Positions 55,846-60,152 of a stretch of DNA of 64,000 nt are shown here, piece after piece. The DNA lies in NCBI GenBank assembly GCA_031415695.1, contig JANOSH010000001.1, positions 43,988 to 107,987 of the forward strand, given 5' to 3'. The DNA comes from Actinomycetes bacterium (lineage in GTDB: Bacteria; Actinomycetota; Acidimicrobiia; Acidimicrobiales; Ilumatobacteraceae). The translations under genes were made by a program, and so were the position numbers. Position 1 is the stretch's first letter. Every line of letters starts with the position of its first letter. Under the pieces are notes generated by a model. That model saw only the letters and a list, made by a program, of their open reading frames with translations. It was not told where the DNA came from and ran no database searches.

Positions 55846-55919
55846 GCGGGTGTAGTTCAGAGGCAGAACATCAGCTTCCCAAGCTGAGAACGCGGGTTCG
55901 ATTCCCGTCACCCGCTCCA
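55846..55919 (+). tRNA. tRNA-Gly (anticodon CCC)
   Basis: Manual cloverleaf: acceptor GCGGGTG/CACCCGC, D-arm GTTC-AGAGGCA-GAAC, anticodon stem TCAGC/GCTGA with loop TTCCCAA (anticodon CCC), T-arm GCGGG-TTCGATT-CCCGT, and a 3' CCA encoded. Confidence 0.85.
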
Positions 55920-56085
55920 GCACGTTTAGCCTGGTCAGACGCCGCAACAGTACCGCCCAGAGCAGGGACGGCCTGCCTACAAGGCTTCGGGGCCTGCGGC
56001 CTCTGTGCCCACCTCATCGGGCCACGGACGGCGCGATTGACAGCTACAGTCCCTTCCGGCAGCGCGCTATCGGAGGTCTAATCGT

Positions 56086-58389
56086 ATGCGACGAGTTTTG
56101 TCCGTTTTGGCACTGTTTAGTTCGTTGGTTGCGGTAGTTCCAAGGCCAGCGGGGGCTGCGATCGTTGCTGGCTTCAGCGACACCGTGGTTACCGCGGCAA
56201 CGCTGCCAACCGCGATTACGGCGTTGCACGACGGGCGCAAGCTTGTGGCCGAACGTCAGGGCGCGGTGCGCATGTTGCGGGCCGACGGCACCTTGTCCGG
56301 GGCCTTGACCACTGTGCCCAACGTATGCACTGAGAGCGAGCGTGGCCTGCTCGGAATAGCGGCCGACGCGGCATTCGGGTCGAATGGTTATTTCTTCGTG
56401 TTCGCGACGGTGAACGACGGGGGCTGTGTCAACCGTGTGATCCGGTACACCCTCACCGGGTCCGCGGTCTCGTCTCCGACGGTGCTGTTGGCCCGCATCC
56501 CGTCGCCGGCTGGCAACCACAACGGTGGCGACGTCAAGGTCGGCAACGACGGCCTGCTGTACATCAGCGTCGGTGACGGCGGCTGCTACGTACGGGACGC
56601 CAGCATGTGCTCCCGCTCCAATCCGGCTGCGCGCGACCTCAGCACGCTGTCGGGGAAGATTCTTCGCATCACCAATACCGGCGCCATCCCGGGCGGGAAT
56701 CCCTACGTCGGCACCGGTACGGCACCCTGTGGGGCAACAGGGCTGATCACCCCTGGTAGCACCTGCCAGGAGATCTACGCGTGGGGTCTGCGAAACCCAT
56801 TCCGGATCGCGCTCGACATGAACTCGCCGGGCAGCCGCTTCTTCCTAAACGATGTCGGCCAGAACACGTGGGAGGAAATCGACGAGTTGGTGCCCGGCGC
56901 CGACTTCGGTTGGAACGTGCGGGAAGGAAGTTGCGCCAACGGTTCGACCACCGACTGCGGCGCCCCGCCGGCCGGCATGACGAACCCGCTGTTCACGTAC
57001 CGCACCGGGGAGGCCGGCTGCTCATCGATCGTGGGCGGGGCATTCGTGCCGTCGACGTGGCCAAACTTCTCGGGCGGCGCCTATCTGTACGCCGACTACG
57101 GCTGCGGCAAGGTCTTCCAGATTTCGCCGAGTGGCAGTGGATGGGCTCAGTCGAACTTCCTCGACGCCGCCAACATCGTGCACCTCGAGATGATCCCGGA
57201 GAATGGCGACTGGGCGTTGTACTACCTGAGCTACGCGAACGGCGGCGAGATTCACCGGGTCGTACCCGAGCGCGTCGCCTCGCCGGTTTCGCCCGGGCGT
57301 CTCATCCCTCGCGCCCCGACGCGAGTACTCGATACTCGCATCGGGCTCGGACGCACAACGGGCGACTCGACTATTTCGCTGACCCTGCCCAGCGACGTCG
57401 TACCAACCGAGGCAGTCGCCGTTGCCTTGAATGTCACCGTGACCGACCCGTTGTCGACCGGCTTCGTCACGGTGTTCCCGGGCGGCACCAACCGCCCGGG
57501 AACGTCGAACCTGAACACAACAGTGGTCGGTGAAACGGTTGCCAACGCCGTCGTGACAACGATAGGGCCGGGCCGAACGCTGTCGATCTACGCGCAGCCC
57601 GCCACCCATATTGTCGTCGACGTCACCGGATACTTCCTGCCGACCGAGGGCAGCGCCGACGGCCGCTTCGTGCCCGTCGACCCTAACCGGCTGCTCGATA
57701 CCCGTTCCGGGGCGAAGCCCGGCGCAGGCGCCCAACTCGACCTGCAGATCACCGGCCAGGGTGGCGTGCCGTCGACGGGGGCGGAAGCCGTGGCGCTTAT
57801 CGTGACGACGACCGAAGCCGACGCCGCGGGTTTTGTGACAGTGTGGCCGACCGGTCTGACCCGGCCGGTCGCGTCGACCGTGAACCCCAACTATGCCGGC
57901 GACATCCGATCCAATCTCGCGATCGTGCCGCTGGGCACCGGCGGGAAGGTGAGTCTGTACACGCAGACAAGCTCGCATCTGGTCGTCGACGTTGCCGGGT
58001 ATTTCACCGACAGCACAGCGAGCGTGTCGCAGAGCGGGTTGTACCAGGCGATCAACCCGGCGCGGGTGCTCGACAGCCGTGAGCCGGTAACCGGTCCTCG
58101 GTGGAGGCTCGGCGAAGATCGAGAGGTATCGGCCGCCTCGGTGCTCCAACGGCCCGGCGTCGCGGTGCTCTACAACCTGACGGCGACGAACACGTCGACC
58201 GGCGGATTCCTTACGGCCCATGCGTCGAACCTCGGGGTGCCCCTGGCGAGCAATGTCAACTTCGACGGGCCTGACCGGAATCGGGCGGCGCTGGCTATCA
58301 CCACGCTGGCTGGCTCACCGGTGTTCAAGGTGTTCGCGAACGTGCCGACGGATGTCATCGTCGACGTGTCGGGATTCTTTCTGGCCTGA
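56086..58389 (+). CDS. Secreted sGDH-like (glucose/sorbosone dehydrogenase family) beta-propeller protein with three C-terminal ~100-aa repeat domains
   Basis: Signal peptide MRRVLSVLALFSSLVAVVPRPAGAA. sGDH-like motif HNGGDVKVGNDGLLYISVGDGG. The C-terminal triplicated modules each start R(V/L)LD(T/S)R and end H(I/L)VVDV(T/A/S)G(Y/F)F. Confidence 0.6.
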   Translation: MRRVLSVLALFSSLVAVVPRPAGAAIVAGFSDTVVTAATLPTAITALHDGRKLVAERQGAVRMLRADGTLSGALTTVPNVCTESERGLLGIAADAAFGSNGYFFVFATVNDGGCVNRVIRYTLTGSAVSSPTVLLARIPSPAGNHNGGDVKVGNDGLLYISVGDGGCYVRDASMCSRSNPAARDLSTLSGKILRITNTGAIPGGNPYVGTGTAPCGATGLITPGSTCQEIYAWGLRNPFRIALDMNSPGSRFFLNDVGQNTWEEIDELVPGADFGWNVREGSCANGSTTDCGAPPAGMTNPLFTYRTGEAGCSSIVGGAFVPSTWPNFSGGAYLYADYGCGKVFQISPSGSGWAQSNFLDAANIVHLEMIPENGDWALYYLSYANGGEIHRVVPERVASPVSPGRLIPRAPTRVLDTRIGLGRTTGDSTISLTLPSDVVPTEAVAVALNVTVTDPLSTGFVTVFPGGTNRPGTSNLNTTVVGETVANAVVTTIGPGRTLSIYAQPATHIVVDVTGYFLPTEGSADGRFVPVDPNRLLDTRSGAKPGAGAQLDLQITGQGGVPSTGAEAVALIVTTTEADAAGFVTVWPTGLTRPVASTVNPNYAGDIRSNLAIVPLGTGGKVSLYTQTSSHLVVDVAGYFTDSTASVSQSGLYQAINPARVLDSREPVTGPRWRLGEDREVSAASVLQRPGVAVLYNLTATNTSTGGFLTAHASNLGVPLASNVNFDGPDRNRAALAITTLAGSPVFKVFANVPTDVIVDVSGFFLA

Positions 58390-58589
58390 TGCGTCTGCAG
58401 GGCTCGGGGCGGTTGTGCCGACGGCGTTCCGTCGGGCGCTGGTCGGCTTGTTACAGCGGGTTTCGCCAGCTTCGATGAACCCGAATCGGTCGAGCCTACA
58501 ACGTGCCTACAACACGACCCTGGGATCTAAACAGCAAAACGTGGCGTCGCATTGCTCCATACTCAGGAAGATTTGCTGTTTAGCGTCGA

Positions 58590-59656
58590 GTGCTGAGTAA
58601 GTGCATGGCAACTGCGACCCTGAATGTGCCATGGCTGCCAGCGGCTAGGCGCGTTGTCGACGGCCTTACGATCGTACGCGGGGGTGACGGGAGGTCGGTC
58701 ATCGAGGTTACCGATGCGGTACAGCTTGCCGAACTCCTGGCGGAGCGGTCCACGTGGCCGAACGGGCCGACAGTCCACGGGTACATGTGGGGTCGAACGG
58801 TTTGGGAGATTGCAGCGCTGGTCGGTGAGCAGGCCGCACGAAACAAGATCGTTGTCGCCGTCACCGGTCGAACCGCTCTGGCCTATCTCGGGGTCATGAC
58901 GACATCGTCGCCCCCTGACGTGCGTGTATGGGTCGACGCAGGCGACCGCGAACTTGCCGAGGTAGCGCCACTCTTGGGATTGGAGCCGGCACCGGTCGAG
59001 GTGCGATCTTCACACCGAGCCTCGCCGCACCGAATTCGCTGCTCAACTCTGGAGGGTGATGCGAAGTGAAGGCACATGTCGGTACCGCCGATCTTGACTT
59101 CCACCTGTCACTCCACCTTCTCGACGGCGAGACCGCCGACTACTACTAGGCCATCATCGACGGCCTGCGCCGCCTCGGGCTACAAGCCGACACCGTCGAT
59201 GGCCGCCCAGTGAAATGGCGATGGCTCGGCATACACCGTGGCGTTCATCTTCAAGTCGAGTTCCTGTGTCCTGTTCGTACACGCGGCGGGCGTCCTGAAG
59301 CACCGGCAGTCAACACCCCGGCAGAGGCCAACATCGGGCCAAGCGGCCAGATCACCGCACTCGCTGTCGGATTCGGCCGCCTCGTACCAGCCGACACCGT
59401 CATCGTCGAACGAAGCGTCGAGACCAGCCGTGGAGTCCTACGCTACGAATTCCCGGTTGCAGGGCTGACCTCCTGGCTATGCCTGAAAGCTGACGCCATC
59501 ATGCGACGAGACAAACCCAAGGACGCCTACGACGTCGTCTGGGTCATCACCGCGCTCGGCCCCGAAGCTGCAGCCGCACTCGTCGCCGCCAGCCCACTAC
59601 TGGCAAGCGAATATGCCGACGACGTACGAACACAACTTCGACGACTCCACGAATAG
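58590..59656 (+). pseudogene. Disrupted nucleotidyltransferase-like gene (frameshift near 59069 plus in-frame TAG near 59147)
   Basis: Three collinear pieces. Piece 1 is in frame 0 to 59069. Piece 2 (HVGTADLDFHLSLHLLDGETADYY, an NTase-like GxxDxDF pattern) and piece 3 (59210-59656) are in frame 2 and separated by a TAG. The family assignment is tentative. Confidence 0.3.
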
Positions 59657-60111
59657 TTCGAGACCGACGCTCCGTCGGACCGCGCGCCTACGCCGACTTC
59701 CTCCAGCAAACCGTCCCGACAACTGCGCAACGATTCGCAATAGGTGCCCTCGCCCGATTCTGGAACGCGCTCGAAACCACGATCGAGCCCAAATAGCTGC
59801 TAAGGGTTCCGACCGCCGCCCAAGCAGCGATCGCTTCGACCGCTGGCCGCAAGGGACACGAGAAGCCCAAGAGCGACGATCTGACCAAACGCTCACTCGC
59901 GGCGCGAACGATGACCTTCATCGTTCGTAGATCCGTCGGTCACTGCGGCAACGACCCCAAATTCCGTCGTGCCTACAGCGTGCCTAGAACAACGGGCAAC
60001 CAAAGTCACGAACGGGTAACCACGGGCACTATCTGATGCTGTATCCGCGCCGTCCGAGCCGGTAAACCATGCTCTGAGGAGGGGGAACGTGATTGTCTCC
60101 TGAACAGTTTA

Positions 60112-60152
60112 CCAAGCTGAGAACGCGGGTTCGATTCTCGTCACCCGCTCCA
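60112..60152 (+). repeat. 41-bp direct repeat of the 3' end of tRNA-Gly (1 mismatch), att-like remnant
   Basis: CCAAGCTGAGAACGCGGGTTCGATTCtCGTCACCCGCTCCA matches tRNA positions 55879-55919 from the anticodon loop to CCA. It lies 4.2 kb downstream in the same orientation. Confidence 0.8.

Follow-up and report, generated by a model that had tools for sequence, protein, structure and literature searches.

Organization of the locus

The locus described here lies in a 64,000-nucleotide stretch of DNA, referred to below as the window, from an uncultured member of the Acidimicrobiia (Actinomycetota, Ilumatobacteraceae; NCBI GenBank assembly GCA_031415695.1, contig JANOSH010000001.1, positions 43,988 to 107,987 of the forward strand). 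It consists of a tRNA-Gly(CCC) gene, a downstream duplication of the 3′ part of that gene, an islet of foreign-looking genes between the two copies and, just to the right of the second copy, the beginning of a tyrosine-integrase gene. The arrangement probably represents the decayed remains of at least two related tyrosine-integrase elements that accumulated in tandem at the tRNA gene, with element A occupying positions 55920-60104 and element B extending from 60153 onward. The features on which this interpretation is based are the following, with P and P′ denoting the left and right arms of an attachment (att) site.

55846..55919, + strand: intact tRNA-Gly(CCC) gene, the 3′ part of which (55872-55919) is core copy 1, the attL core (ARAGORN, Rfam, repeat search)
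55920..56038, + strand: degenerate P′-arm-like spacer of element A, with a post-CCA box (55921-55940) and one arm-type unit, TGCCTACAA, at 55974-55982
56039..58389, + strand: captured sGDH segment, with a coding sequence of 767 aa (56086-58389) preceded by 47 nt of its own leader
58477..58514, + strand: vestigial second pair of P-arm sites, GAGCCTACAA CGTGCCTACAA, directly behind the sGDH gene and with no core after it
58605..59069, + strand: orf154, directly upstream of the nucleotidyltransferase pseudogene, where an antitoxin gene would be expected
59063..59797, + strand: pseudogene of an AbiEii-type nucleotidyltransferase, interrupted by an in-frame TAG (59147-59149) and by a frameshift near 59650 (three-frame translation)
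59953..60104, + strand: P-arm at the right end of element A (attR arm), with candidate paired arm-type repeats CGTGCCTACAG CGTGCCTAGAA at 59968-59989
60105..60171, + strand: core copy 2 (60105-60152) and its post-CCA box, a displaced tRNA 3′ fragment forming a chimeric, attP-like junction between A and B
60211..60227, + strand: candidate paired arm-type repeats of the P′-arm of element B, CGTGCCACAT CGTGCCA, 60 nt downstream of the core
60252-60437, + strand: tyrosine-integrase remnant, codons 1 to ~62, comprising the arm-binding N-terminal domain only; the frame stays open to 60533 in unrelated sequence
60615..63691, + strand: surviving cargo of element B, listed further below

The tRNA gene and its displaced 3′ copy

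The tRNA-Gly(ccc) gene at 55846-55919 is the sole tRNA that ARAGORN finds in the window, and the Rfam tRNA model matches it with 69.9 bits at 55846-55916. In a repeat search of the window, positions 55872-55919 align with 60105-60152 over 48 nt at 94% identity, the second copy departing from the first at 60108 (T), at 60111 (A, within the anticodon loop) and at 60138 (T). The repeated stretch is the 3′ part of the tRNA from the anticodon loop to the CCA, displaced by 4233 nt downstream in direct orientation; it begins in the anticodon stem/loop, and beyond the CCA the similarity runs on for ~20 nt with a single indel (CACGTTTAGCCTGGTCAGA versus CACGTTGGCCTGTTCAGA). Neither ARAGORN nor Rfam reports the second copy as a tRNA. 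The two spacers between tRNA sequence and first ATG, one behind each copy, are weakly but significantly similar (z = 3.3; none of 987 random pieces of the window reaches the score).

A preliminary description of the locus, prepared from the sequence alone, had noted a 41-bp duplication of the tRNA 3′ end some 4.2 kb downstream and had read the two copies as attL and attR formed by an integrase that targets tRNA genes. The duplication is real and slightly larger than noted (48 rather than 41 nt), and the reading of its ends is upheld, the integrase being of the tyrosine type. As to whether the 41-mer (55879-55919 and 60112-60152, with one C/T mismatch at 55905/60138) might be scattered over many sites unrelated to tRNAs, it occurs exactly twice in the window at up to three mismatches, compared with 0.00 occurrences expected from shuffled sequence.

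A family of integrases dedicated to tRNA-Gly(CCC)

The open reading frame (ORF) to the right of the second copy begins MSRNSCGNVRKLPSVKFQARYCIDYVWHSAPATFRTKKETYSFLAGARTDLDRGVWLDP at a distance of 100 nt. A tblastn search of the window with the 368-aa integrase of the related locus L033 aligns with it at E = 3e-22, covering residues 1 to ~62 with 66% identity over 59 aa, and a precomputed match assigns it to PF26003 (Integrase_N_phage). The Pfam release searched here is one without PF26003 and gave no match to the remnant, and the comparison with full-length relatives was used in its place; among phage records, tblastn with the remnant found a single marginal match. In the relative, the SAM-like domain does not begin until residue 65, beyond the aligned part, and the core-binding and catalytic domains PF14659, PF22022 and PF00589 (R-H-R-Y) are absent from the ORF at 60252-60533, which is thus no functional recombinase. 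No other integrase fragment was found up to window-equivalent position 73.7 kb, where window-equivalent coordinates beyond the window are taken from contig L092 (GCA_043718545.1). A weak integrase-like match at 4158-4355 was rejected as spurious, as it lies inside a 1390-aa ORF (2457-6629, − strand) that has multiple P-loop motifs, appears FtsK/EccC-like by eye and is unrelated to the islet.

Homologues of the remnant, either full-length or decayed, are located 108-114 nt after an intact tRNA-Gly(CCC) gene in L033, L053 and L019. The complete integrase of L033, with PF14659, PF22022 and PF00589 (2e-15), follows the tRNA after 108 nt; L053 carries a 395-aa homologue at the same place and a TrwC-type relaxase gene further on; in L019 the copy is truncated, and in L061 a frameshifted copy adjoins tRNA-Gly(CCC). 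An alignment of the two intact integrases retrieved 36 metagenomic loci, and among the loci of at least 64% identity tRNA-Gly(CCC) is found upstream of the integrase gene in 14, nearly always at ~110 nt. The remnant therefore belongs to a tyrosine-integrase family in the Acidimicrobiia that is dedicated to tRNA-Gly(CCC). N-terminal stumps of the integrase recur beside this tRNA in the window, in L019 and in L114, a mini-element from another organism described below, and remnants confined to the N-terminus are found independently in L019 and L132. A scan of IMG/VR with the L033 integrase yielded only matches of ~29% identity and was uninformative. In the more distant actinobacterial loci L085 and L086 the integrase gene adjoins tRNA-Gly(CCC) on the opposite strand, with a GTGCCW pair 63-77 nt after the tRNA, and in the family member L113 (650-2440) the P′ arm sites are separated from the integrase gene by an inserted rve-type transposase gene (insertion sequence).

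Architecture of the attachment sites

The window contains three occurrences of the motif GTGCCW-N4-6-GTGCCW (units spaced by ~11 nt) where 0.19 would be expected, and two of the three pairs flank the second copy of the core, at 59969-59985 and 60212-60227. On the right side, a GTGCCW pair is found 60-87 nt after tRNA-Gly(CCC), between core and integrase gene, in every integrase-bearing relative (L019, L033, L053, L061, L085, L086 and most of the metagenomic family members). On the left side, the sequence 59968-60026 is identical at 50 of 60 positions (83%) to the region upstream of a partial tRNA core in L104, and the layout of the right end of A matches that of L112 and of the attR of L114. 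In L104 (9700-11065) and L112 (7670-8759) a partial tRNA core follows a P-arm and is in turn followed by the integrase gene, with no full tRNA nearby, and the two are to be read either as excised or free elements or as additional tandems. The anticodon loop (TTCCCAAG) is the point from which all four partial copies of the core match the tRNA.

Taken together, the attP of the family consists of a P-arm GTGCCW pair, ~120 nt, a core equal to the tRNA from anticodon loop to CCA, ~60 nt, a P′-arm pair, ~25 nt and the integrase gene, where the GTGCCW pairs would be arm-type sites bound by the N-terminal domain of the integrase and the anticodon stem would supply the inverted core sites. The second copy of the core has a P-arm on its left (59968-59989) and a P′-arm (60211-60227) followed by the integrase remnant (60252) on its right, and is thus the kind of chimeric internal site that would form where two elements stand in tandem.

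The left end of A is less well preserved. The box after the CCA at 55921-55940 resembles the one after the second copy, and the spacer behind it has a single recognizable arm-type unit and no similarity to integrases, the integrase gene expected there being gone. As a 9-mer, TGCCTACAR, this unit occurs four times in the window (0.30 expected), with three of the four inside the islet. The pair of sites behind the sGDH gene matches the right P-arm of A at 33 of 39 positions (58477-58514 versus 59953-59991; none of 487 random pieces of the window reaches the score), and a 26-nt degenerate P-arm-pair pattern is found in these two regions only. It may be the remnant of a further att site, in which case A would itself comprise two accreted remnants.

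Cargo of the two elements

The content of A agrees with its preliminary description as a gene for an sGDH-like secreted protein and a disrupted nucleotidyltransferase gene. The first encodes a secreted β-propeller (Pfam GSDH, 1.5e-39) with three C-terminal repeats of ~123 aa, an architecture shared by a large family in the Acidimicrobiia. Its four closest homologues (77%, 70%, 57% and 55% identity) are all situated in a conserved glnA-sGDH-PRK-like-YgjP/SprT neighborhood (loci L137-L142), and the 55%-identical paralogue (P0005) at the glnA locus co-occurs with this organism in the same samples. Homology at the DNA level to the glnA-locus gene of the 77% homologue amounts to 73% and covers exactly 56039-58386, that is, the gene with its 47-nt leader. 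As the homology is limited to gene and leader while the homologues reside at the glnA locus, the sGDH gene of the islet is a displaced, gene-sized acquisition and not a resident gene. A 10-mer, GGTCTAATCG, precedes the start codons of both the sGDH and the integrase genes; on the sGDH side it falls within the leader belonging to that gene. L138 and L137 have homologous leaders that lack the 10-mer, and its presence in both places was treated as probably due to chance.

The nucleotidyltransferase pseudogene is recognized by the Pfam AbiEii model with 3.4e-5 on a 148-aa ORF and with 9.8e-7 on a conceptual repair across the frameshift, and by the PADLOC AbiEii model with 0.004; with an in-frame stop and a frameshift, it is not the intact AbiEii nucleotidyltransferase of an AbiE system. 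The upstream orf154 has no family match in Pfam, NCBIfam or PADLOC. An AbiEii nucleotidyltransferase gene is also present in L112, where it precedes the P-arm together with genes for a TrwC relaxase (2e-69) and a helix-turn-helix protein. The two AbiEii genes show no detectable relation to each other (pairwise E = 3.2) and so provide no evidence of shared cargo.

The cargo surviving in B was identified with Pfam and PADLOC; its right end is undefined.

60615-62129, + strand: ATPase of 504 aa, PADLOC candidate defense family PDC-S27 (1e-16)
62184-63034, + strand: fragmented AraC/DUF6597 and bleomycin-resistance-like ORFs (Pfam)
63069-63691, + strand: Phd/PIN toxin-antitoxin pair (Pfam)

The segment 62184-63034 is a patchwork of a DUF6597/AraC-like N-terminus, a helix-turn-helix tail and bleomycin-resistance-like N- and C-termini, which suggests several frameshifted genes. 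About 6 kb beyond the 504-aa ATPase, a second ATPase_2 protein of 486 aa is encoded at window-equivalent 68140-69600 (L092 14839-16299). Two PEP-utilizer/Rph-like genes (547 and 551 aa) on opposite strands bracket the variable region, at 53512-55155 and at window-equivalent 65701-67356 (L092 12400-14055).

Conservation of the insertion site

The tRNA-Gly(CCC) gene adjoins dcd in 50 of 80 related dcd loci. None of these 50 relatives has a second copy of the core within ~10 kb. In eight relatives a conserved block of genes lies 0-7 kb from the tRNA, and the variation of this distance marks the site as a variable insertion hot spot. No relative with the gene order of the islet was found, and the sGDH orthologues of the relatives are at another, housekeeping locus.

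Origin of the locus

The integrase remnant 100 nt to the right of the second copy argues for a tandem of at least two elements over a single islet, and the most probable history of the locus is accretion of two related elements of the dedicated integrase family followed by decay of both. Element A, with the sGDH gene and a broken AbiE-like module, may be composite, whereas B retains the truncated integrase gene and its own cargo. According to this model, the 3′ side of tRNA-Gly(CCC) would serve as an integration hot spot for one family of elements in the Acidimicrobiia, whose integrase would recombine the attP core with the tRNA gene, with the crossover presumably falling in the anticodon loop. 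Each incoming element would bring a new 3′ half of the tRNA and shift the old one to its own far end. Two or perhaps three integrations, or one integration of a concatemer, could have produced the tandem, and the second copy would then consist of the P-arm of A, the core, and the P′-arm of B followed by its integrase gene. A newcomer could have used either the regenerated tRNA or the displaced copy as its target, so that either A or B may have arrived first. Later deletions would have removed the whole integrase gene of A, that of B past codon ~62, and the right att site of B. Deletions crossing the tRNA, which the cell needs, would be counter-selected, so that leftward they would be barred and only att sites and the first integrase codons would tend to survive, which would also account for the recurrence of N-terminal stumps. 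Both elements would now be immobile fossils, and should the anticodon loop be the overlap region, the C/A mismatch between 55878 and 60111 would hinder excision of A even with an integrase supplied in trans.

Several observations weigh against accretion and decay of two elements as just described. Neither a third copy of the core nor a further P-arm pair occurs up to window-equivalent 73.7 kb, so the outer att site of a tandem is missing and the extent of B is undefined. The P′-arm of A is recognizable only weakly, as the z value of its spacer indicates, and the G+C profile neither sets the region apart nor delimits the islands. No allele devoid of A or B has come to light: exact-match look-ups of the ATPase, sGDH and PIN proteins brought up no other arrangement than this one, a scan of the Joint Genome Institute (JGI) metagenomes for the exact junction between the second copy and B gave 0 matches, and the nearest genome relatives reach at most 84% Dcd identity, none being close enough to show an allele of this kind.

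The alternative that fares best, although it is itself rather unlikely, is that A and B are parts of one and the same element (integrase gene, cargo of B, cargo of A) that formed a tandem dimer by double integration or as a concatemer and then suffered complementary deletions, so that the left copy kept just its distal cargo and the right copy just its proximal part. The att arms of A and B are indeed related, tandem arrays of the same element have been documented, for instance for SGI1 (PMC5704250), and a dimer would account for the lack of any trace of an integrase in A. Such a history, however, needs at least two large and complementary deletions, the arm-site variants of the two elements differ (GTGCCTA in A versus GTGCCAC/T in B), and no intact element with the order integrase, ATPase, sGDH, AbiE was found.

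It is distinctly improbable that the islet is something other than a pure fossil. In one version of this idea, the 62-codon domain, which is conserved and has an intact reading frame, would persist as a stand-alone binder of att arms that occupies the GTGCCW sites and might, for example, prevent additional integrations or excisions there; in another, single genes would be captured between att arms in the manner of cassettes, a notion based on the sGDH gene having only a 47-nt leader and being followed directly by a vestigial P-arm.

The preliminary description favored a single decayed islet at 55846-60152 that had lost its own integrase, with possible remnants of the gene in the non-coding stretch 59660-60110, a reading under which ordinary chromosome would lie to the right of the second copy. 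The direct repeats do enclose foreign-looking cargo, and the statement that no integrase is present holds for the interval between them: tblastn with two full-length integrases of the family and a Pfam search of the ORFs detect none in 55920-60104. The statement does not extend to the locus as a whole, given the remnant just outside the interval, at 60252-60437. Nor does 59660-60110 contain integrase debris: the best E value of the two integrases there exceeds 0.1, and that stretch consists of the frameshifted tail of the nucleotidyltransferase gene (to 59797) and the P-arm with its paired arm-type repeats (59953-60026). What follows the second copy is not ordinary chromosome, since P′ arm sites and the integrase remnant stand there at the canonical spacing. 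A single islet is accordingly very hard to reconcile with the locus.

Equally little can be said for an assembly artefact, in which the conserved tRNA would have caused a chimeric join in the metagenome-assembled genome (MAG) and the 4.2-kb segment would not really follow this dcd-tRNA pair. The left junction is not covered in most assemblies: within the tRNA lie the ends of all five short-read contigs that arrive from dcd (55874-55903) and the starts of the contigs from the sGDH side (55866-55892). The Logan contigs, however, break exactly at the point from which a 30-mer lies wholly within the conserved tRNA, as would be expected at k = 31. For Logan, the breaks were for this reason also rejected as evidence of polymorphism, the tRNA being shared among species; the ends of two megahit (k141) contigs, at 55898 and 55903, come shortly before position 55905 with its C/T difference, and here strain heterogeneity is possible. 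The left junction (dcd, tRNA, sGDH) is spanned both by the window and by the near-identical contig JAYSVO010000095.1 of an Acidimicrobiia MAG (GCA_043718545.1), and these are not the same assembly, as window positions 53302-64000 differ from L092 at 23 positions, eight of them clustered at 62463-62487. The sGDH-side contigs in every assembly start with the 3′ part of this very tRNA and continue into A. Four Logan assemblies and one scaffold of the European Nucleotide Archive likewise contain the right junction (AbiEii, second copy, integrase remnant, ATPase), so the partial copy and the P-arm at the right end of A are real in five assemblies, and they need a tRNA partner upstream. Logan contigs of SRR20217185, SRR20217186 and SRR20217190 match the window at 100% identity, and the window therefore seems to come from a second, nearly identical assembly or strain.

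A chance repeat, or a tRNA pseudogene from a local segmental duplication, is scarcely credible for the second copy, with 0 matches expected by chance, a start in the anticodon loop like that of the attP and attR copies of the family, and flanks formed by conserved P and P′ arms and the integrase remnant.

Comparison with known systems

As a tandem of decayed elements, the locus is of use mainly for annotation and opens no new question. The att architecture of a tyrosine-integrase element family in uncultured freshwater and soil Acidimicrobiia is defined by it, together with the site that the family targets, the anticodon loop of tRNA-Gly(CCC), and it shows a route by which an extra secreted sGDH-like gene reached this genome. 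More generally, deletions beside a needed tRNA keep att sites and the first integrase codons, and islets that seem to be devoid of an integrase should therefore be checked just outside their repeats.

The closest general parallel is found in the tRNA-gene (tDNA) islands identified with Islander, in which an intact tDNA and a displaced fragment mark the island, an anticodon-centered attP is common (class A, to which about half of the mapped tDNA islands belong) and tandem arrays occur (PMC4383910). Here, likewise, an intact tRNA gene, regenerated by the element, is followed downstream by its 3′-end fragment in direct orientation, identity starts from the anticodon loop, a tandem array occupies one tDNA, and a tyrosine-integrase family is tied to the site. 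Unlike those islands, the interval contains no PF00589 integrase, the neighboring integrase being a 62-codon stump, and the Islander filter would reject it.

Accretion in tandem and cis-mobilizable elements (CIMEs) were first described for ICESt1/ICESt3 of Streptococcus thermophilus (Pavlovic 2004; Bellanger 2011; PMC5704250). Element A is a CIME-like islet, with attL and attR retained (both core copies, the right P-arm and the degenerate left P′ spacer) around the sGDH gene, orf154 and the AbiEii pseudogene, and with no match to integrases or relaxases, that is, without genes for integration or transfer. It likewise stands in tandem with a related element with which it shares a chimeric internal att site. 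The difference is that its partner B is also dead, with a truncated integrase gene and the right att site lost, so that cis-mobilization is not expected; in addition, the host is an uncultured member of the Acidimicrobiia. The relaxase genes in L053 and L112 suggest an integrative and conjugative or integrative and mobilizable element as the ancestor.

Elements and phages of actinobacteria also use tRNA-Gly, and mycobacteriophage L5 has its attB in a tRNA-Gly gene. Gordonia and Propionibacterium phages have ~55-nt matches to the tRNA described here. The locus shares with them the core from anticodon to 3′ end as the target, an integrase of the lambda type whose N-domain is arm-binding, and arm-type sites to either side of the core. 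In contrast to the phages, there are no phage genes at the locus, the integrase is only ~29% identical to its nearest IMG/VR matches, and the GTGCCW arm-site sequence is, as far as tested, specific to this integrase family.

The most similar single case is L114 (JGI contig Ga0209048_10070635, 1-2770), a 2.5-kb mini-element from a different organism that comprises tRNA-Gly(CCC), a decayed integrase gene of the same family, a PIN toxin gene, a P-arm pair and a displaced tRNA fragment. The attL/attR layout is the same, with the P-arm pair ~146 nt before the attR core, and the displaced fragment carries the same C-to-T variant in the T-arm as the second copy in the window. L114 differs in keeping 249-284 integrase codons and in being a single element and not a tandem. 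With no integrase of the kind that Islander demands and with its outer att site gone, the locus is filed beside these systems as a decayed and not an active member, an ordinary and well-known kind of genomic fossil.

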